64,000 nt of DNA from an uncultured Erysipelotrichaceae bacterium (GCA_947166565.1 CAMVEL010000003.1:15277-79276), one strand, 5' to 3'; counted from the first letter of the stretch, positions 8,860-16,647 are shown. A program made the numbers and translations. The notes: generated from the sequence alone by a model not told the origin.

Positions 8860-10110
8860 TCAATCGTTTTCGTCTTTCCTCGTCAGCAGGAAGATGGCTT
8901 TTTGGCGCTCAATCTCGTTTCTAAGTTCCGTCTCGTCCGGCATGTATGTTTTGTATTTCGCCGCGAAGATCTGCTCGTTTCCCTTAAGCACGCTATAACG
9001 GGCGATGTCCTCATCGGTCTCCGCGCACAAAAGGATTCCGAGCGTAGGATTGTCACCCGCGCCCTTGATCCTCTCGTCATACATGCGGACGTACATATCC
9101 ATCTGCCCGACGTCCTGGTGTTCGATCTTCTTGGCCTTGAGGTCGACGAGCACGAAACAGCGGAGGAAGTAATTGTAGAAAACGAGGTCGACGTAGTAGT
9201 CCTTCTTCTCCGTGTGGATCCTCTTTTGCCTTGCGACGAAGGCATAACCCTTCCCCATTTCGAGCAGGAACTGCGCCAAATGGTCGATGATGGCCTGCTC
9301 GAGTTCCGTCTCGTCGGGCCGTTCCGGATTCGGCAAACCGAGGAATTCCGCCACGAAAGGGTTCTTCACGTACTCAAGCGGATCCTTTGAGGGAGCGATT
9401 CCCTGGGGCAGCGCAGGCATGCTGCCACTTTGGGTGGAGAGCAGTCTTTCGTAGTATTGGCTATGGATCGCCCGCTGCAGGTCGCGGACGCTCCAGCCAG
9501 AGGCAAGCGCCTCCTTTTCGTAATAGGGCCTTGCCACATCGCTATCGACGCGGATCAATAAAGTATAATGAGACCATGAGAGGAAAGAATTTCCAGACGG
9601 CGTTTGGAAAATGTTAGGAAAAAGCCTATAGAAACGAACATAGGTATAAAGGCTGGATTTGTCGAATCCGCTTCCGAATCTTTCGGTCAAAAACGCCGAT
9701 AGCTTCTTGATAATCGACTTCCCGTAGTCGTTGGCTCTCGTCGAGAGGATCTCCTCGTCAATGCGCTTGCCGATTAGATGGTTTCGTCGCAATAGTGCGA
9801 TATTGATAGCACGCACTGCATCCTGCTTCGATGCCTCGACGATGGCGGAAACATCGGCGGAGACGTCCCCGGACTTGGACACCGAGAAAGCGGGAATAGC
9901 GTTCATCTGATTGCCGGCGACGATTTCCTCATAAAGCGCGTTGACCTTCGCCGCCGTTTCGTAATTGGGACCGAAATGTCCGTTCTCCAATCTGTTGACC
10001 GTGGAGAAGCTGACGCCCAGACGCTTTGCCATATCGGTTTGCGACAGTCCGAGCGCCATGCGGACCGCGATAAGTTTTTCTTTGAATTCCATGAAAGAAT
10101 TATATCGCAT
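8860..10110 (-). CDS. XRE-type HTH fused to a DUF1016 (YhcG-like) PD-(D/E)xK nuclease
   Basis: 416-aa ORF. The N-terminal LGLSQTDMAKRLGVSFSTVNRLENG is an XRE HTH. The middle SWSHYTLLIRV...ARPYYEKEA is the YhcG N-domain. The C-terminal region YYVDLVFYNYFLRCFVLVDLKAKKI carries the nuclease core. The start may be the internal Met at 10092. Confidence 0.8.
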   Translation of the reverse strand: MRYNSFMEFKEKLIAVRMALGLSQTDMAKRLGVSFSTVNRLENGHFGPNYETAAKVNALYEEIVAGNQMNAIPAFSVSKSGDVSADVSAIVEASKQDAVRAINIALLRRNHLIGKRIDEEILSTRANDYGKSIIKKLSAFLTERFGSGFDKSSLYTYVRFYRLFPNIFQTPSGNSFLSWSHYTLLIRVDSDVARPYYEKEALASGWSVRDLQRAIHSQYYERLLSTQSGSMPALPQGIAPSKDPLEYVKNPFVAEFLGLPNPERPDETELEQAIIDHLAQFLLEMGKGYAFVARQKRIHTEKKDYYVDLVFYNYFLRCFVLVDLKAKKIEHQDVGQMDMYVRMYDERIKGAGDNPTLGILLCAETDEDIARYSVLKGNEQIFAAKYKTYMPDETELRNEIERQKAIFLLTRKDEND

Positions 10111-10406
10111 TAATGCTATATAAACAAGGGGGGCCGGTGCAAAATTGCATCACGTGGTTCCAACGTGTCTACTTATGTCGTTATGTATCCAGTGCATGCG
10201 TCAAATTTTCCCCGCACTGCTTCATTTGCGTGGAACGTCCCGGGCGAAATAACGTCGGAGCACTACATAGTCATCGTGCTTCCGAACTGCATTGGTGGCT
10301 TTGTAATTCTCAACCACCAACCTCGTTTTTCTCCGAAAAGGTGGTATGAGGATGGTATGGAGAAATGCATACCATTCCGGATTTAATAGACGCGATCGGG
10401 CGAATT

Positions 10407-10431
10407 TGGAGCGCAGGAATCACGAAGCGGG
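10407..10431 (+). repeat. possible degenerate cassette-boundary core (TGGAGCGC-aggaatca-CGAAGCGGG)
   Basis: Same orientation, preceded by CGCGATCGGGCGAATT. It resembles the core with an 8-nt insertion and one substitution. It lies in a 670-bp stretch with no convincing ORF. Confidence 0.3.
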
Positions 10432-10702
10432 CATTTCTTCATCGTTTATTATTGGCCCTTCATCATTGTTTTTATTTGAAAAGGGCCTTTTTCATTGTAT
10501 TGCGCCACCGCTATTCGTCGTTTGTAATTGGCCCTGAAGATATTATTTTGCGCTCTTCTCGGACCCTTTGAAACGCGGCGTATGCGCGAAAGGAAAACTC
10601 CTTCCATTCGGCCGAAGACCCTACAAGTCCGCTTCCAGGATCGTTCCAATTCAGGCTTATGACAAATGGGGTTGTAATCCATCACGATTGCAAAGAACCC
10701 CT

Positions 10703-10732
10703 AAAACATAAAACCATCGCGACGAGGCGATG
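10703..10732 (-). terminator. rho-independent terminator of the RiPP/two-component operon
   Basis: The reverse strand reads CATCGC-ctcgtc-GCGATG followed by GTTTTATGTTTT, about 55 nt after the stop at 10787. Confidence 0.6.
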
Positions 10733-10786: not shown

Positions 10787-11242
10787 CTAGAATTTCTTCT
10801 TGAGGGTGAGGATGTTCATGTCCTCTTTTCTTTCATATGAGCATTCATCCATGATCTTCTTGACGATATGGATGCCTAAGCCCCCGATTCTATTTAAGGT
10901 CTCCGCGGTCCCGATGTCGGGGTTCTCGACGTCTAACTGATTGAAGGGTTTGGCCTTATCGATGACGACGATCGTGAAATCACGGGTTTCCCCGTCGAAT
11001 AGAAGGCGTAACCTAATGACCCCCTCATTATCTTCATAACCGTATTTGATGATATTGGAGATTAATTCATCCCCAACGATCACGAGTTTGGTGGAGAAAT
11101 CCATGGGTAAACCATGCTCATCGGAGAAATCGCCGATCATCCCAAGCATCTTGGGGACGTTTTCCTTCTTGGCTTCGAAGTCCTTCTCCAAGCAATGCAA
11201 GCTATCCGTAAGAGGATTAAGAGGTTCGTTGTTGTTTTCCAT
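10787..11242 (-). CDS. anti-sigma-factor-type serine kinase (SpoIIAB/RsbW-like HATPase_c protein)
   Basis: 151-aa ORF of typical size. It has the N-box (ELISNIIKYG) and G-boxes (IGGLGIHIVKKIMD) of GHKL partner-switching kinases. It sits directly downstream of a STAS gene. Confidence 0.7.
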   Translation of the reverse strand: MENNNEPLNPLTDSLHCLEKDFEAKKENVPKMLGMIGDFSDEHGLPMDFSTKLVIVGDELISNIIKYGYEDNEGVIRLRLLFDGETRDFTIVVIDKAKPFNQLDVENPDIGTAETLNRIGGLGIHIVKKIMDECSYERKEDMNILTLKKKF

Positions 11243-11262
11243 GCTATCTCCCCTACTTATCC

Positions 11263-11559
11263 TTATGAAAGCTTCTCGACGTTCATGAGATCGGTAAAGC
11301 CAACCATATCGAAGACCTCATAGACCGCCTCCTGGGCCTTGATGATCCTCGTATCATCATATAATTTCTTTAACCTAACGACGATTCTTAGACCCGCGGA
11401 GGAGATATAACGGAGTTTCTCCATATCCAAAACGACTCTCTCGATTTCCTTCCCTTCGAGGATGGAATCGATTTCCTTCTCGATTTCTTCCGCGTTATAG
11501 GAATTGAGTTCCCCTTCAAGGAAGAGAGTGAGGGTCTTTTCTTCTAGGTTAAAGTTCAT
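11263..11559 (-). CDS. STAS-domain anti-sigma-factor antagonist (SpoIIAA/RsbV-like)
   Basis: The frame contains LDMEKLRYISSAGLRIVVRL, the STAS phospho-Ser loop region. The start was trimmed to the ATG at 11559, which is preceded by GGAG. The track ORF extends to 11616. Confidence 0.75.
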   Translation of the reverse strand: MNFNLEEKTLTLFLEGELNSYNAEEIEKEIDSILEGKEIERVVLDMEKLRYISSAGLRIVVRLKKLYDDTRIIKAQEAVYEVFDMVGFTDLMNVEKLS

Positions 11560-11659
11560 GTTGGGACTCCGACTATAGATTATCGTCAAGGGAGAGGAAG
11601 GCTCACTTAAAAACAATCTCTAGGTTCTTGATGATATAAATATAACTCAACCAATGATT

Positions 11660-13054
11660 TTAATCGATATCCAAAGGATTGGTTAGTTGCCAAGGGAGGG
11701 TATCCTTGACCTTCTCGTAATAACCGTTTTCAAAGAAATAGCATTTGGTGATGTCTTCGTGGAAGAAATCGATATCCTTGGAATAAAGAAGCCCAAGGGC
11801 AGGGCAGCCACCCGTGCAGGCCTTGTAATATTTGCAGTTCGCGCATTTATCGTTACGGAGGATCTGGGTGAGGATCGGGGCGGTTGCCAAATTGACGTAT
11901 TCGCTATTTTGGACGAGTTCCTTCAAAGGGGTCTTAAGGCAATTGCCCAAACTGATGCCCTTTTCAAGGAAATAGCCTGACATCTGTAAACAGGGGACGA
12001 CTTCGCCATGGCTTGAGACGGCGATCATGCCCCTATTCCCCTTGCACATTGGGATGCGGATATTGAATTCGTCCTTGCTGCAGGCAATGGGAACCAATTG
12101 GTATGTTTGGTAACCCGGATTGATACGGAGGAACTGCCAGATATCGATATCCATCTCCATCCCGCTTTCCATATATTCCTTCGCGAATAGCAGCATGTTG
12201 TCGTAATATTCTTGGATGGTAAGGCTAGACTGAGGGGAATTCTTCTCCCATCTAGGGGCTTCGGTCGTGCGGATGATGCGCATCTCGTCGACGCCCATCC
12301 CGTTAAGGAGCTTCGCGGTCTCCATCATGGAGGAGAGGTTCTTCCTGTTGACCTGGGTTTGGGCTTTGACCCTAAAGCCATTATCCTTGCATAGCTTAAA
12401 GGCCTTGATGGTCATTTCCTCGGCCTTAGGATGTTGACGGATCCAGTTATGGTAGCCGATGCCATCGAAGGAGATCTTGATAAGGGGAGAGCAGCCGATC
12501 TTCTTGAATTCGTCCAGCATCCCTTGGGTAAGCAGCAGGCCATTGGTATTGAGCTCAAAGACCATCATGTCGCGTTTATAGATTTCCCTGACGATATCAA
12601 GGAAGCGACGGTGGACGAGAGGCTCTCCTCCCGTAATAGTGAAACCATGGACCCCGATCTCATTGGCCTGGTCCAAGATGGAGATGACATCCTCGAAGGA
12701 AAGCTCCGTATTCAAGGGGGCGTTATCCTTCGCGTTGAAGCAATGGAGGCAATTGAGGTTGCATTTCCCGGTGATCATGAGATTCATCCTTGGGAAATAG
12801 AGGTTATCGTATTCCTTTAGCCTAGACCATTCCCTAGGGGAATCGCCCTGCTTGCATTCTTTGATGAGCCTTCGTTCAAGAAGATGCTCGATGACGGGGG
12901 TCTTCTCCAAATCGTGGTTCCCATCGCAAAGAAGGAGGGTTTCGAATTCCTCCTTATCCGCGCCGGAAGCAACATCGGAATACTTATAGTAAATCGCCCT
13001 ATCAACATAACGCCATCTACGTAAGGCGATGTTGTTAGAAAGAGTATAAAACAT
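11660..13054 (-). CDS. radical SAM / SPASM-domain peptide maturase
   Basis: 464-aa ORF. The CNLNCLHC motif (CxxxCxxC) lies about residue 98. C-terminal Cys-rich SPASM signature CANCKYYKACTGGCP, with further auxiliary-cluster Cys upstream (PMCKGNRG, VVPCLQMSG). An N-terminal ~90 aa before the SAM cluster could be a peptide-recognition (RRE-like) domain. Confidence 0.85.
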   Translation of the reverse strand: MFYTLSNNIALRRWRYVDRAIYYKYSDVASGADKEEFETLLLCDGNHDLEKTPVIEHLLERRLIKECKQGDSPREWSRLKEYDNLYFPRMNLMITGKCNLNCLHCFNAKDNAPLNTELSFEDVISILDQANEIGVHGFTITGGEPLVHRRFLDIVREIYKRDMMVFELNTNGLLLTQGMLDEFKKIGCSPLIKISFDGIGYHNWIRQHPKAEEMTIKAFKLCKDNGFRVKAQTQVNRKNLSSMMETAKLLNGMGVDEMRIIRTTEAPRWEKNSPQSSLTIQEYYDNMLLFAKEYMESGMEMDIDIWQFLRINPGYQTYQLVPIACSKDEFNIRIPMCKGNRGMIAVSSHGEVVPCLQMSGYFLEKGISLGNCLKTPLKELVQNSEYVNLATAPILTQILRNDKCANCKYYKACTGGCPALGLLYSKDIDFFHEDITKCYFFENGYYEKVKDTLPWQLTNPLDID

Positions 13055-13072
13055 CGTTTGACCCTTCTTTAA

Positions 13073-13279
13073 TCAGGAGTCGAATTTCCTCTTTTTCTTG
13101 GTATCTTTATCGTTTTCTTCGTCAGAGGTGCAGGCCCCACCGTTGACCGCGGTGAGTTGTTCATCGTTAAGCTCAACGCCTTCGTCTTTGGCGAGTTGGA
13201 GCAAATCGTGGATGTCATCGCAAGCCCTGACCTTCTTGATTTGGTCTTCCGTTAAACCTTTAAGTAATTCTTTTCTCAT
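13073..13279 (-). CDS. RiPP precursor peptide: Nif11-like leader ending in GG, plus a 20-aa charged core with one Cys
   Basis: The 68-aa sequence is MRKELLKGLTEDQIKKVRACDDIHDLLQLAKDEGVELNDEQLTAVNGG|ACTSDEENDKDTKKKRKFDS. AGGAG lies 7 nt upstream of the ATG. The stop is 18 nt from the rSAM start. The leader resembles Nif11/double-glycine leaders. Confidence 0.6.
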   Translation of the reverse strand: MRKELLKGLTEDQIKKVRACDDIHDLLQLAKDEGVELNDEQLTAVNGGACTSDEENDKDTKKKRKFDS

Positions 13280-13300
13280 GCTTCTACTCCTATGGTTGTC

Positions 13301-13338
13301 ATTATACTATCATCCCATCTGTCACAAAATCGCCACAG
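13301..13338 (-). promoter_or_regulatory. candidate promoter and operator dedicated to the precursor gene
   Basis: The reverse strand has TATAAT (13306-13301) preceded by a TTTGTG -35-like box. This box overlaps the imperfect palindrome CTGTGGC-gatttt-GTGACAG (13338-13319). The site lies in the 66-nt gap between the HipA-like gene and the precursor. Confidence 0.35.
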
Positions 13339-13345
13339 ATAATAA

Positions 13346-14548
13346 TTATTTGTTTTGGTTTTTGTTCGCTAAGGAATCTATGGCCTCCTTTTGGTTTCTA
13401 TAAACCTCGATTATGTTATCGATAAGCTTAGGCGTATAGAAACTGCTCTTGGAGAGGTATTCGCGGATTTCATCCTCGAATCCCTCAAGTTTGGAGGGAT
13501 CATACCACGAAAGGTCCCAATTCGGATCGAGGTAGCCATAAAGGAAATAAACAATTAGGTAGGTCCCCTGATTTAGATTTGAGAGGACTTTTTGGCCATC
13601 CATCGTCCCTCCGAAAGACCCTGCCAAATCATAAAAGGGGGCCGGATGGATCTCCTTGGTTATGAGGTTTCTGATGATCCCGATGTTATCGAAGTGGAAA
13701 TCGGGGACAAAACAAAGGGCCCTCAAGCAGGAAAGCTTGACGAAGAATTCATAGAGGTCGCCCATGCCGGAACGGTTGATCTCCTCGAAGAATTCCCTCC
13801 CAAACCGCTTATTCATGTTCTTGTTGCGGTAAAGCTGATACAAGCTCCGTGGAAGCATCGCGGAAAGATGGACCAAGTCCTCGTCCTTCTTGATCATCGG
13901 TTTGGAGACGGACGCGTATCCCCCATTCCATTCCCTAAGTTCATATTCGAGGACCTCGTTTTCCTTGAATAGCCTTTTGGCTAGCCTTGAGGTCAATACC
14001 TCCCCTAGGGATTCCTCGCAATGTCCTGCTTGGATGCCAAGTTTATATAGCCTAGGCCCGTCTTCCTCGCTTATCCATCCCTTGACAGCCCAACCTTGGG
14101 TTAAGGTATCCGGGACATCGAGGTTTACGTTCCTTAGGGCTTCGAAATCATCGTTAAGGAGAGCCCTCGCGAAGCTATCATCCCAACGGTTATCGAAGAA
14201 ATTGATGTCCTCGTATTTGAGGTTCTCATCCTCTTTCTTGAACCAATAATGATTGGATAAGGAGAGGCCATGGCCTTTGAAGACCAATTCAAAGGAATCG
14301 CGGCAACCAGTCGCTTCCATAATCTTATGATAGCCATGGCGCGCAACAGGGATCACGCGACGGGCAAAAAAGGTATAGAGGGTCCCATCCAGATTGGCGT
14401 TTTCCTTGGTAAGTTGATATGGGGCCATCTCGAATTGCTCCCTCTTCTCGATGACTTCTATTCCATTTGGGTCGAAGGAGACCGAAAAGAGGAGGACCTC
14501 ATAATCCTCGAACATCAGGATATAACGTTTTTCTTTGGTTTTGTTCAT
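13346..14548 (-). CDS. HipA-family Ser/Thr kinase-like protein
   Basis: The catalytic-loop-like motif is VPDFHFDNIGII and the downstream motif is APFYDLAGSFGG. Compare HipA D-x-H-x-x-N and aP.YDl. The start was set at the ATG at 14548, because the track ORF starts at a TTG at 14602. Confidence 0.65.
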   Translation of the reverse strand: MNKTKEKRYILMFEDYEVLLFSVSFDPNGIEVIEKREQFEMAPYQLTKENANLDGTLYTFFARRVIPVARHGYHKIMEATGCRDSFELVFKGHGLSLSNHYWFKKEDENLKYEDINFFDNRWDDSFARALLNDDFEALRNVNLDVPDTLTQGWAVKGWISEEDGPRLYKLGIQAGHCEESLGEVLTSRLAKRLFKENEVLEYELREWNGGYASVSKPMIKKDEDLVHLSAMLPRSLYQLYRNKNMNKRFGREFFEEINRSGMGDLYEFFVKLSCLRALCFVPDFHFDNIGIIRNLITKEIHPAPFYDLAGSFGGTMDGQKVLSNLNQGTYLIVYFLYGYLDPNWDLSWYDPSKLEGFEDEIREYLSKSSFYTPKLIDNIIEVYRNQKEAIDSLANKNQNK

Positions 14549-14614
14549 AATGCCCGCTAAGTTTAGGTTAGGGCCAGCCACAAAGGTGTCACAAAAAAAC
14601 AAAGAATAAGAATA

Positions 14615-15373
14615 TTATTCCGCGTGGAAGAAGGCCCAATCGTATTGGATCATGTATTCGCCGCGATACATCCTCACCGCATTGGGGTTATCCTTCTTAT
14701 ATTCATAGGCATCGCAATCGACCTTGGTGACATCGATATAGCATTCGTTATGGCGCTTGATGAAGACGTCGGATGCCCCGACTTTCTTCAAGGTGCTTTG
14801 GATATCGGCGATGAGGTTCCTTAGGTATGATTGATGGTCCTCTTCCCAAAGGATCGCGTTAAGCTCATTGACGGAGATCGCAGAACCCTCCCTATCGACG
14901 AGATAGGCGAAGGCTTCCTTCGATTTCTTATAGGAGAACCTTAAGGGCTCGCCGTCGCAGAAGACCTCGAAATTCCCAAAGCATTTGATTTGGATGCGTT
15001 TCTCCTTGCCTAATTCTATGGGGTTGCGGAGGTTTTCCATCTCCTCGATGATGTTTTCTTTGCTAACCGGCTTGGTGATATATCCGGAAGCGTGGATCCT
15101 ATGGGCCTCAAGCGCGTATTGGTCATAGGCGGTGACGAAGATGATGTTGATAAGGGGGTAGAGCTCCTTCAAACGCTTGGCGAGTTGGATGCCGTTGATC
15201 TCCGGCATCTCGATATCGAGGAAGGCGAGCTCGAACTGAACGGTCTTGGCTTTCTTATAGGCATCAAGGGGATTGCCAAAGGCATATAGCTCCCCTCCTT
15301 TGATGACCTCATTGACCTCTTTTTCGAGTCTCATCAACTGCAAAGGCTCATCGTCAACTAACAAAATGTTCAT
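14615..15373 (-). CDS. response regulator: receiver domain plus SARP/BTAD-like winged-helix output
   Basis: The N-terminus is ILLVDDEP...LAFLDIEMPEINGI...IIFVTAY (REC). The C-terminal half is KCFGNFEVFCDGEPLRF..SKEAFAYLVDREG.AISVNELNAILWEE, a SARP-type DNA-binding pattern. Confidence 0.75.
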   Translation of the reverse strand: MNILLVDDEPLQLMRLEKEVNEVIKGGELYAFGNPLDAYKKAKTVQFELAFLDIEMPEINGIQLAKRLKELYPLINIIFVTAYDQYALEAHRIHASGYITKPVSKENIIEEMENLRNPIELGKEKRIQIKCFGNFEVFCDGEPLRFSYKKSKEAFAYLVDREGSAISVNELNAILWEEDHQSYLRNLIADIQSTLKKVGASDVFIKRHNECYIDVTKVDCDAYEYKKDNPNAVRMYRGEYMIQYDWAFFHAE

Positions 15374-15375
15374 AT

Positions 15376-16647
15376 TTATCTCCCTTTCTTCGGAAATGTG
15401 GCCACCGCCTTCGCCCCCTTATTTGGTTCGCTTTCCATATGGAGAGAGCCACCTGACATCTTGGCAATACGATATGCGATGTTGTTGAGCCCGAAATGCT
15501 TATTGGAGGCAAAATCGACTCCATCCTTATCAAAGCCGATGCCATTATCCTCTATTTTGACGATATAGGCATCATCGTCTTCGTAGGTCGATATCTTGAC
15601 GGTACCCCCTTCCATCTTCTTGAGGATGCCGTGCTTGATCGCGTTTTCCACTAAGGGTTGGACGCTTAATGGGGGAAGGTAGAAATCGGTGACGTCGAGG
15701 TCGTAGATGACGTTTATCCTATCGGGGAAACGCAATTCCTCCAAGGCGATGAAGGTCTTGATATGGCGGAGTTCATCCTCAAAGGGGATGAGGTGGCTTT
15801 CGGTCAAGGTCGAGAGGTTTATCCTTAGGTAAGCGGTGAAATCATCGAGGGCCTTCTGGGCTTTCTCGGGGTCAAGGGGGATGAGGGTGGAGATCGCCGA
15901 TAATGAGTTATAGACGAAATGGGGCTGGATCTGCGAGAGCATGACCCTGATTTGGGCCTCTTTGGCTTTCTCTTCCTCTTTTGCCAATTTGACGTTTTTC
16001 TCGACGTTAAGGAAGAAGAACAATACCTCGATCGCGACGATTATCGAGACATAGGCGATCGCATAGCCTTTGAAGAAATTCTGGAAGATGATCGCGATAA
16101 GGGGAAGGACGCAATAGGTCGCGAAGGCCGCCTTCTCGCGGATTTGCAGCTGTTTATGGGTGATCGCGGTAAAGAAGACGATCGCCAGCATCAAGAACTG
16201 ATAACCTTGGCTAAGGAACATCGTTTTCTCACGTATGTATTCCCCGTTTTCCGCGTGGAAGAACATCGGGACGAAGATATTGAGGATATCGAGGATCGCG
16301 AATATCGCGAAGGCGGCGATGTTGGTTATGTTTAGGGCCTTCTGCGTCTTTTCCTTTAATTCCACGTAATTCCTCATATAAACGTAGAGGAAAAAGACCT
16401 CAAGGTTATTCGCGATATAGAAGGATGTGTAGAAGGCCATTATGAGGGCGTTGCTCGTATGGTTGGCCTTAATGAAGGTAAAGGTGAAATAGGCCGCGAA
16501 ATGGAAGGCGGTGAAAGCCAGGAATATCAAAAGGGAGCCCTCATCGTGCCTTCTGTTCTTCTTTATCGATAGGCTAACGATATGGACAGTGAGGATAACG
16601 AATCCGATCAGGCAGACCGCTGCATTGAAAACGGCGTTGTTGCTCAT
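15376..16647 (-). CDS. membrane sensor histidine kinase, LytS/YehU type (His_kinase PF06580-like plus HATPase)
   Basis: 423-aa ORF with about six N-terminal TM helices. The QIQPHFVYNSLSAI H-box is characteristic of the LytS family. The ATPase motifs are ENAIKHG, DNGIGF and GLNNI. There is a 2-nt gap to the response-regulator gene. Confidence 0.8.
   Translation of the reverse strand: MSNNAVFNAAVCLIGFVILTVHIVSLSIKKNRRHDEGSLLIFLAFTAFHFAAYFTFTFIKANHTSNALIMAFYTSFYIANNLEVFFLYVYMRNYVELKEKTQKALNITNIAAFAIFAILDILNIFVPMFFHAENGEYIREKTMFLSQGYQFLMLAIVFFTAITHKQLQIREKAAFATYCVLPLIAIIFQNFFKGYAIAYVSIIVAIEVLFFFLNVEKNVKLAKEEEKAKEAQIRVMLSQIQPHFVYNSLSAISTLIPLDPEKAQKALDDFTAYLRINLSTLTESHLIPFEDELRHIKTFIALEELRFPDRINVIYDLDVTDFYLPPLSVQPLVENAIKHGILKKMEGGTVKISTYEDDDAYIVKIEDNGIGFDKDGVDFASNKHFGLNNIAYRIAKMSGGSLHMESEPNKGAKAVATFPKKGR

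Follow-up and report, generated by a model that had tools for sequence, protein, structure and literature searches.

In this study, we analysed a window of 64,000 nucleotides from an uncultured Erysipelotrichaceae bacterium (GCA_947166565.1, CAMVEL010000003.1:15277-79276; the window is this whole stretch, and positions are counted from its first letter) and a locus within it, at 10787-16647, in which a 68-aa open reading frame (ORF) precedes a radical SAM/SPASM enzyme (rSAM). The ORF is a genuine precursor of a peptide made by ribosomal synthesis and then modified post-translationally (RiPP), and the locus is probably a functional, if reduced, member of a large RiPP cluster family in rumen and gut Firmicutes. 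We propose that the peptide is translated and that its shortened Nif11-like leader is held by the N-terminal domain of the maturase, which would act where the core begins, at A-C-T-S-D. Most likely, H would be abstracted from a nearby residue and the carbon joined to the Cys sulfur in a small thioether ring; the candidate crosslink partner lies three residues past the Cys (+3), at Asp53 in the window. In the canonical family, the leader would be cleaved at Gly-Gly and the peptide exported by an NHLP/Nif11-type C39-peptidase ABC pair. Control would be exerted by a dedicated membrane histidine kinase (HK) and response regulator (RR) together with a partner-switching module of STAS protein, serine kinase and PP2C phosphatase, and the mature peptide may be a secreted signal sensed by the six-transmembrane HK. 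The window lineage appears to have lost the transporter pair, an HlyD-like stub and the PP2C half while keeping sensor, regulator, HipA-like protein, precursor, maturase, STAS protein and kinase. Cleavage and export would then probably fall to a promiscuous double-glycine transporter elsewhere in the genome and, less probably, the peptide would act inside the cell.

Precursor and maturase form a conserved pair. At E<1e-10, 1,775 homologues of the enzyme were found, nearly all without a name and originating in rumen or gut metagenomes. Their neighbourhoods were sampled at 67 genomic loci (numbered with an L below) from rumen Bacilli (metagenome-assembled genomes, MAGs, labelled 'Erysipelotrichaceae'), Lachnospiraceae, Ruminococcus and other Clostridia. 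The pairing is kept across about 45 loci. Like the window, most Bacilli loci encode a same-leader peptide directly upstream of the enzyme; at other loci the peptide gene closely follows that of the enzyme or is a few kb away, often in multiple copies. A profile search brought the leader family to at least 3,978 proteins. The initial annotation had read the locus as a RiPP system and had named, as a refutation of that reading, a small ORF that is not conserved beside homologous maturases. Since the ORF is conserved there, the reading passes its own test.

The reduced locus is also maintained. The same seven-gene layout and genomic context recur in at least six independent assemblies from different samples, and the reduced layout is found in the 97%-identical MAG RUG266 (L057/L064) as well; it is therefore not a product of chance, and we rejected an assembly artefact for the same reason. 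We calculated the ratio of nonsynonymous to synonymous substitution rates (dN/dS) between the window and the RUG266-type strain, which shares the deletions, at dS values of 0.09-0.26. The ratio was 0.04 for the RR, 0.05 for the STAS protein, 0.06-0.12 for the rSAM, 0.08 for the HipA-like protein and 0.13 for the HATPase_c_2 kinase, or 0.04-0.15 overall for these genes, and 0.59 for the precursor. Six of the nine precursor replacements fall in the core, between its N-terminal tag and its RK[IF]DS end, so the core middle varies even in near-identical strains. The remaining genes are under strong purifying selection, which indicates that the peptide is still made and modified.

The features of the locus are as follows.

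15376-16647, minus strand: HK, 423 aa, a LytS/YehU-type membrane sensor (PF06580 and HATPase_c)
14615-15373, minus strand: RR, 252 aa, Response_reg and an OmpR/SARP-like winged-helix output domain
13346-14548, minus strand: HipA-like protein, about 400 aa, Ser/Thr-kinase-like with a HipA fold, assigned from structure and profile
13073-13279, minus strand: RiPP-type precursor ORF, 68 aa
13136-13279, minus strand: precursor leader, residues 1-48, a shortened Nif11-like helix region with a double-glycine end
13076-13135, minus strand: precursor core, residues 49-68, ACTSDEENDKDTKKKRKFDS, with family motifs at both ends
11660-13054, minus strand: radical SAM/SPASM maturase, 464 aa (PF04055 and PF13186)
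11263-11559, minus strand: STAS protein, 98 aa (PF01740, TIGR00377)
10787-11242, minus strand: HATPase_c_2 kinase, 151 aa, an RsbW/SpoIIAB-type serine kinase (PF13581)
10703-10732, minus strand: probable intrinsic terminator, hairpin CATCGCC..GCGATG at 10715-10732, then GTTTTATGTTTT

From HK to kinase, the genes are separated in order by 2, 66, 66, 18, 100 and 20 nt, and Shine-Dalgarno-like stretches are found ahead of the genes for precursor, rSAM, STAS protein and kinase. Much of the initial annotation holds at this level: all seven co-directional minus-strand ORFs are present, the precursor reads identically around the cleavage site (ELNDEQLTAVNGG before ACTSDEENDKDTKKKRKFDS), and Pfam and NCBIfam confirm the HK, Response_reg, rSAM/SPASM, STAS and HATPase_c_2 domains. 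A terminator at about 10703-10732, also proposed there, is plausible from the hairpin at 10715-10732 and the following GTTTTATGTTTT; the terminator scan reported the hairpin for the plus strand only, and the T-run was read on the minus strand. Just past this terminator, about 1.8 kb of DNA that the window does not have is inserted in sister strains (window 10322-10664 compared with L057:1636-3426 and L068:12071-13486). In L068 the insertion is a 471-aa ATPase_2/AAA_14 gene, and the HTH-DUF1016/YhcG gene flanking the site (window 8860-10110) is otherwise syntenic.

The full precursor consists of the leader MRKELLKGLTEDQIKKVRACDDIHDLLQLAKDEGVELNDEQLTAVNGG and the core ACTSDEENDKDTKKKRKFDS, and the leader ends in EQLTAVNGG, a double-glycine cleavage motif, directly before the Ala of the core. 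Pfam and NCBIfam scans of the precursor at default thresholds gave no match, and relaxed thresholds and relatives were needed to place it. The window peptide falls below the cut-offs of TIGR03798 (14.8 bits, cut-off 32.3) and of PF07862, Nif11 (14.0, cut-off 23.8), whereas a distant relative (L047) passes TIGR03798 at 38.9 and a same-leader zinc-ribbon paralogue passes PF07862 at 26.4. The earlier 'Nif11' label is thus accurate for relatives and extends to the window peptide by family link only, as 'Nif11-like'. The leader contains one Cys, C20 (VRAC20DD, window 13220-13222), and a single leader Cys is present in 117 of 120 sampled peptides. It could form a disulfide with the core Cys, contact a cluster or be structural.

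Position statistics were derived from these 120 peptides, which share one leader type and comprise 96 short cores (14-21 aa) and 24 long cores. All 120 leaders split at GG after a conserved EQL..V.. motif, and in all 120 a Cys follows one or two residues past GG. Short cores have the form GG-(A)-C-[ST]-x-[STDE]...hydrophilic...[HK]-R-K-[IFY]-[ED]-S. Relative to the Cys, S/T occurs at position +1 in 91/96 and S/T/D/E at position +3 in 95/96, the background for the latter being about 40%; D/E occupies position -2 from the C-terminus in 89/96. Most short cores end in [HK]RK[IFY][ED]S, and some do without this tail (L010, L045, L002). The window core is among the carriers: it starts A-C-T-S-D-E, ends RKFDS and has one Cys (Cys50). 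Its very hydrophilic, net-neutral character speaks for a signal or receptor ligand and against a bacteriocin acting on membranes. Long cores read GG-[IVFM]-C-T-S-T-P-x-F-x-CPxCGS...CxxCG and form a zinc-ribbon-like mini-domain; their position +3 is S/T/D/E in 23 of 24, and S/T in as many.

The tag at the core start is shared even where the rest of the core is not. In a Ruminococcus MAG (L043, 900-4100 and 12023-13167), at least 10 precursors have near-identical leaders, most followed directly after GG by CGT(S/T/A), and hypervariable tails of 20-90 aa, beside one detected rSAM homologue. The shared tag ahead of hypervariable tails places the modification site at the core start. Across the family, the near-universal element is accordingly a Cys plus Ser/Thr-rich tag right past the cleavage site, and it is there that the shared maturase is expected to act.

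With its one detected rSAM homologue, L043 amounts to a prochlorosin-like library. Elsewhere, arrays of 2-5 extra precursors with the same leader encode zinc-ribbon-like cores of 40-50 aa (L005:488-1992, L011:4564-5697, L015:103-572, L046:143-637), and these cores, x-C-T-S-T-P-x-F-x-CPxCGS...CxxCG, carry a fifth, N-terminal Cys. To our knowledge, a zinc-ribbon-like domain is very unusual as a RiPP core.

The maturase has the radical SAM cluster motif C98-x3-C102-x2-C105 and scores 75.5 bits against PF04055 (cut-off 29.5) and 34.2 bits against PF13186 (SPASM; cut-off 21.5). SPASM domains with two auxiliary clusters were defined by the pattern C-x9-15-G-x4-C ... C-x2-C-x5-C-x3-C ... C, and the seven-Cys set is complete (C337-x12-G-x4-C355, C404-x2-C407-x5-C413-x3-C417 and C438), with C325 in addition. 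Among the best 25 of its 80 NCBIfam matches, no family reaches its cut-off: the top match, AhbD, scores 104.9 against 500, the sactipeptide maturase StsB (NF045574) 78.8 against 625, Nif11-class peptide radical SAM maturase 3 (TIGR04103) 68.6 against 725 and the anaerobic sulfatase-maturing enzyme (anSME; TIGR03942) 67.5 against 349.45, and TIGR03973 (ranthipeptide/SCIFF) is absent. The ranthipeptide rule in antiSMASH is a TIGR03973-type maturase (PMC13289728). The core C-T-S-D-E has one Cys instead of the six of SCIFF and does not contain the sulfatase motif C/S-x-P/A-x-R. The ranthipeptide pattern that the initial annotation saw in C-T-S-D did not translate into ranthipeptide membership by any hidden Markov model (HMM). 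By each of the tests applied, the locus falls outside the sactipeptide, ranthipeptide (SCIFF), streptide and anSME families.

Fold-level comparison was made with an AlphaFold model of moderate confidence (pLDDT 73), used for this purpose only; the SPASM region is below 50 because the clusters are not modelled. Foldseek placed SkfB first (1e-13, 19% identity), followed by SuiB (3e-11) and PqqE, and anSME is also among the fold matches. SuiB, the second-best fold match, is the best full-length sequence match in the PDB. Its nearest folds SkfB (which forms a thioether), SuiB and PqqE are peptide maturases, and the enzyme does not side with the sulfatase maturases; clustering with the latter had been named in the initial annotation as a refutation. 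The model also contains an extra N-terminal domain of about 85 aa (residues 1-85, pLDDT about 90) made of a beta-strand plus two helices. No PqqD/RRE (RiPP recognition element) signature was found in the first 90 residues, either in Pfam at E<=10 or against the PDB with a 17-sequence profile at E<=10. Its predicted topology is suggestive and makes this domain a likely candidate for binding the leader.

A thioether on Cys-x-x-[S/T/D/E] is compatible with the conservation pattern, and two alternatives have to be weighed. At three Lachnospiraceae loci (L030:7706-7924, L031:7701-7925, L040:7706-7924), the sole peptide has a different leader, ending in ELSDDELDMISAAG, and the core LYEEQYKNKNDFIDD, which contains no Cys, Ser or Thr and has Tyr at core position 2, where others have Cys. 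The enzymes there are 66-67% identical to that of the window, so a thioether cannot be the universal chemistry. These loci speak for a reaction of another kind, such as a Cys-to-formylglycine-type oxidation, an epimerisation, or a C-C or ether crosslink at Ser/Thr/Tyr. That no thioether-maturase HMM is passed agrees with such a reaction, and SuiB and PqqE, both of which form C-C bonds, are structurally as near as SkfB, with anSME among the fold matches too. Set against these points, the Cys past GG is invariant in the sampled precursors, the core does not carry the sulfatase motif and the anSME model scores 67.5 against 349. We regard a non-thioether reaction as rather unlikely.

The ring could alternatively span the peptide, with Cys50 joined to Ile/Phe/Tyr at -3 or Asp/Glu at -2 of the C-terminal motif in a sactipeptide- or ranthipeptide-like macrocycle of about 15-17 residues whose loop is the variable middle. 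Short cores are conserved at either end, with a linker of variable length and sequence between, D/E at -2 is frequent as given above, and Asp/Glu is the acceptor type in known Cys-Asp/Glu thioethers (ranthipeptides, QhpC). The Cys-free cores have Tyr at residue 2 and a similar F-[IM]-D-[DE] end, and SkfB, the best structural match, forms one long-range Cys-Met bridge. However, the zinc-ribbon-type and hypervariable long cores share the N-terminal Cys-S/T and do not have the RKxES tail, at loci with one detected rSAM homologue, and the short cores of L010, L045 and L002 do without the tail too. The macrocycle thus remains a tentative and rather doubtful option beside the small N-terminal ring that we prefer.

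The fate of the modified peptide is best considered against the cluster of the relatives, which is more complete. In L003 the order is HK, RR, HipA-like gene, precursor, rSAM, a 126-aa protein resembling the N-terminus of HlyD, C39-ABC, a second ABC, one or two STAS genes and a 616-aa protein with five transmembrane segments, a SpoIIE/PP2C domain and a C-terminal HATPase_c_2 domain. By their scores, the ABC proteins of the relatives are near the NHLM thresholds and not formal members (TIGR03794/03796/03797): the first scores 839.7 against 853.3 for TIGR03796, with 110.9 bits for C39, the second 647.2 against 709.4 for TIGR03797, and the HlyD-like stub 26.2 against 156.2 for the NHLM HlyD model. 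PCAT, the NHLM-type C39-ABC, is present in 27 of the 28 loci whose flanks reach at least 7 kb on either side, and the second ABC, the HlyD-like stub and a membrane PP2C phosphatase fused to the kinase are likewise assigned to these 27. One locus (L025, JAFUHJ010000089.1), with a cluster of this bacterial type, lies on a contig binned as a Methanomethylophilaceae archaeon; its enzyme is 69% identical to that of the window and its PCAT 75% identical to that of the Bacilli locus L003, and misbinning is a more probable cause than a truly archaeal cluster.

The window itself differs. Searches of the 64 kb with the relatives' proteins (tblastn) found no HlyD-like stub, no C39/PCAT and no matching second ABC, the only hits being generic ABC ATPase similarity of about 30%; neither a PP2C phosphatase nor an ECF-type sigma factor was found in the same way. 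Transporter pair, HlyD-like stub and PP2C half are likewise missing from the 97%-identical relatives. Compared with 27 of the 28 relatives, about 4.8 kb of transport genes and a phosphatase domain of about 1.4 kb are missing, and the lack of an exporter is best taken as a secondary loss, confined to the window lineage. The initial annotation had noted that exporter and protease are absent and had taken this to suggest an intracellular product. The absence stands for the 64 kb; as the NHLM-type C39-ABC of the well-flanked relatives shows, it is no trait of the family that would speak for an intracellular product. Double-glycine C39 domains cut diverse Nif11-type leaders (PMC6363468), and export in trans is thus plausible.

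In an intracellular system, the modified peptide would keep its leader, stay in the cytoplasm and there engage the HipA-like kinase or the STAS/kinase partner-switching pair, as a ligand or as a substrate. C39/PCAT is absent from the 64 kb, the exporter-less layout is stable in the six or more assemblies and under purifying selection, the loss of PP2C together with the exporter suggests a rewired module, and the core end RKFDS resembles a basophilic-kinase site with a kinase gene adjoining. Nevertheless, the leader retains a perfect double-glycine cleavage/export motif, the membrane HK, presumably an extracellular sensor, has been kept, all other lineages export the peptide as judged by PCAT in 27 of 28 well-flanked loci, and the RKxES tail is not strictly tied to the presence of the HipA-like gene (L007, L008, L046). 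We therefore consider an intracellular product improbable. A broader proposal is more improbable still: that the family puts a chemically new modification on a universal N-terminal Cys-Ser/Thr tag (Tyr in Cys-free members) of cargos ranging from 14-aa charged peptides to zinc-ribbon mini-proteins, and that the window lineage has turned it into an exporter-less intracellular signal to the HipA-like kinase and/or the STAS/serine-kinase switch. A decaying pseudo-cluster, its genes left non-functional once the exporter was deleted, would account for the missing transport and phosphatase sequence and is rejected on dN/dS as highly improbable, the seven ORFs being intact, those of precursor, rSAM, STAS protein and kinase behind Shine-Dalgarno-like sequences, the catalytic and cluster-ligand residues all kept, and dN/dS low since the split from the RUG266-type strain.

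The signalling genes around the pair are conserved as well. The HK (PF06580 71.5 bits, HATPase_c 46.3 bits) has about six predicted transmembrane segments and no large extracellular domain in a transmembrane scan. It is conserved upstream of the cluster in related Bacilli loci (54-62% identity), and distant Clostridia loci have weaker HK/RR-like matches (23-43%) near the rSAM. The RR scores 76.2 bits against Response_reg and is weakly OmpR-like (Trans_reg_C 13.2 against 26.2, E 0.096), with NCBIfam alignments to PhoB, CreB and VanR covering residues 25-205. No BTAD domain was matched at E<=10, and about 45 residues follow the winged helix; of the earlier 'REC-SARP' label, the REC domain and an OmpR-like winged helix are borne out, and SARP is too strong. 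The STAS protein (PF01740 57.6 bits; TIGR00377 64.7, cut-off 53.45) keeps the SSxGL phosphorylation-site motif (YISSAGL), and the stand-alone kinase scores 80 bits against PF13581 (cut-off 27.4), aligning to residues 478-614 of the 616-aa SpoIIE::HATPase_c_2 protein of L003. Together they provide the STAS antagonist and HATPase_c_2 kinase by which partner switching was defined. A sensor combined with a switching module is the layout typical of auto-induced secreted peptides. The initial annotation had seen a RiPP pair set inside a signalling operon. This was not borne out, because HK-RR, HipA-like protein, STAS protein and kinase recur in the clusters of the relatives and are therefore native parts of the family cluster.

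Lachnospiraceae and Clostridia versions have an ECF-type sigma gene beside the rSAM gene, a stand-alone 151-aa kinase and separate SpoIIE phosphatases. In Pseudobutyrivibrio (L033, 883-4606 and 7070-7986), two SpoIIE phosphatases of the membrane type, of which one has a HAMP domain, a STAS gene and an ECF-type sigma gene directly upstream of the rSAM make up a complete partner-switching circuit dedicated to the RiPP cluster.

The HipA-like protein has no Pfam or NCBIfam match at default thresholds, HipA_C (PF07804) included, and its L003 orthologue scores 18.7 against 30.5 for that model. Its identity, as initially annotated, is nonetheless upheld by fold and catalytic-loop residues. The AlphaFold model (pLDDT 89) matches HipA 4pu5 over its whole length (Foldseek E 2e-8, TM-score 0.56) and also CtkA; a 25-sequence profile against the PDB retrieved CtkA at E 0.008, with the catalytic-loop region and the YD motif aligned, and the family alignment shows no variation at D283, H285, N288 or D307. 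The family has about 197 homologues, all labelled hypothetical, and those sampled occur only in these RiPP clusters. No gene for a HipB (helix-turn-helix) antitoxin is adjacent, the neighbours being the RR and the precursor. The kinase may tailor the peptide, with its S/T-rich tag and RKxxS end, or it may be regulatory instead. Pairing of the kinase with the C-terminal RKxES tail was tried and rejected, since L007 and L008 have the tail without the kinase and L046 the kinase without a short precursor; with such imperfect co-occurrence, a link between kinase and tail is not claimed.

Several points weigh against the mechanism that we propose, a leader-guided thioether at the core start followed by export. 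The leader-binding role of the N-terminal domain is drawn from predicted topology only, with no PqqD or PDB sequence match. The sampled peptides are mutually related, so the counts over the 120 overstate independence. The Cys-free cores LYEEQYKNKNDFIDD pair with enzymes 66-67% identical to the window's, so the reaction may not need Cys, and a purely N-terminal ring does not explain the conserved [HK]RK[IFY][ED]S end. Export in trans is an extrapolation from 64 kb of analysed DNA. The literature searched contained no paper on the maturase or its peptide family, and likewise no experiments or solved chemistry for any member.

The family is abundant in ruminant gut metagenomes, as the homologue and leader counts above illustrate (1,775 and at least 3,978), and we found no curated model, name or paper for it. 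Its conserved GG-x-Cys-Ser/Thr tag is a sharply defined substrate for learning the role of a new clade of SPASM enzymes. As a regulatory architecture, the fixed tie to both a HipA-fold kinase and a partner-switching module is unusual in a RiPP cluster. In the window lineage, nature has in effect run an experiment, with exporter and phosphatase gone and the rest under selection, that can set trans-acting transporters against an intracellular role.

Known systems resemble the locus in parts. The HipA-like protein shares with HipA/CtkA kinases the HipA fold over the whole protein, the CtkA catalytic-loop profile and the invariant D283, H285, N288 and D307; it differs in having no HipB gene, in falling short of the HipA_C model and in its narrow family (about 197). 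With RsbV/RsbW/RsbU (SpoIIAA/AB/E), the window shares a STAS protein with a phosphorylatable Ser motif and a HATPase_c_2 kinase, to which relatives add PP2C (SpoIIE) and Lachnospiraceae/Clostridia relatives an ECF-type sigma beside the rSAM. In contrast to that system, the module sits in a RiPP cluster, and in the window it is without phosphatase and sigma factor.

Streptide (SuiB) and the other RaS-RiPPs of streptococci, which are linked to quorum sensing, also combine one rSAM/SPASM maturase with a short core, are tightly linked to signalling genes of their own and are likely to serve in signalling and not in killing, whereas the window has HK/RR plus partner switching instead of Rgg/SHP, and leader type, export and core motif differ. 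Sactipeptide systems (SkfB, AlbA, StsB) and ranthipeptide systems (CteB/SCIFF, PapB) have in common with the window maturase a C-terminal auxiliary-cluster domain and an extra N-terminal domain, and with its substrate a Cys core with nearby S/T/D/E acceptor-type residues; SkfB is the best fold match. The window core differs from these thioether RiPPs in its one Cys compared with 3-6 and in its extreme hydrophilicity, no family HMM is passed, and relatives include Cys-free cores.

NHLM-type export in Nif11/NHLP-leader RiPP systems was reportedly described by Haft et al. in 2010. Such systems (prochlorosins; LahA/LahT of the rumen Lachnospiraceae C6A11, PMC6363468) are like the present family in their helical Nif11-like leader ending in Gly-Gly. 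The relatives share with them a two-gene C39-ABC/ABC pair just below the TIGR03796/TIGR03797 cut-offs and an HlyD-like gene, and the family likewise fuses one leader type to many hypervariable cores. They differ in that the family maturase is an rSAM/SPASM enzyme and not LanM or a cyclodehydratase, that the window leader is shortened, fails the Nif11 HMMs and has no export genes beside it, and that the HlyD-like protein of the relatives is a 126-aa stub. By analogy, the locus would operate like a Nif11-leader, rSAM-modified, auto-regulated secreted peptide system, and its features of interest are the HipA-fold kinase, the partner-switching module, the selected exporter-less derivative and the chemistry of the maturase.

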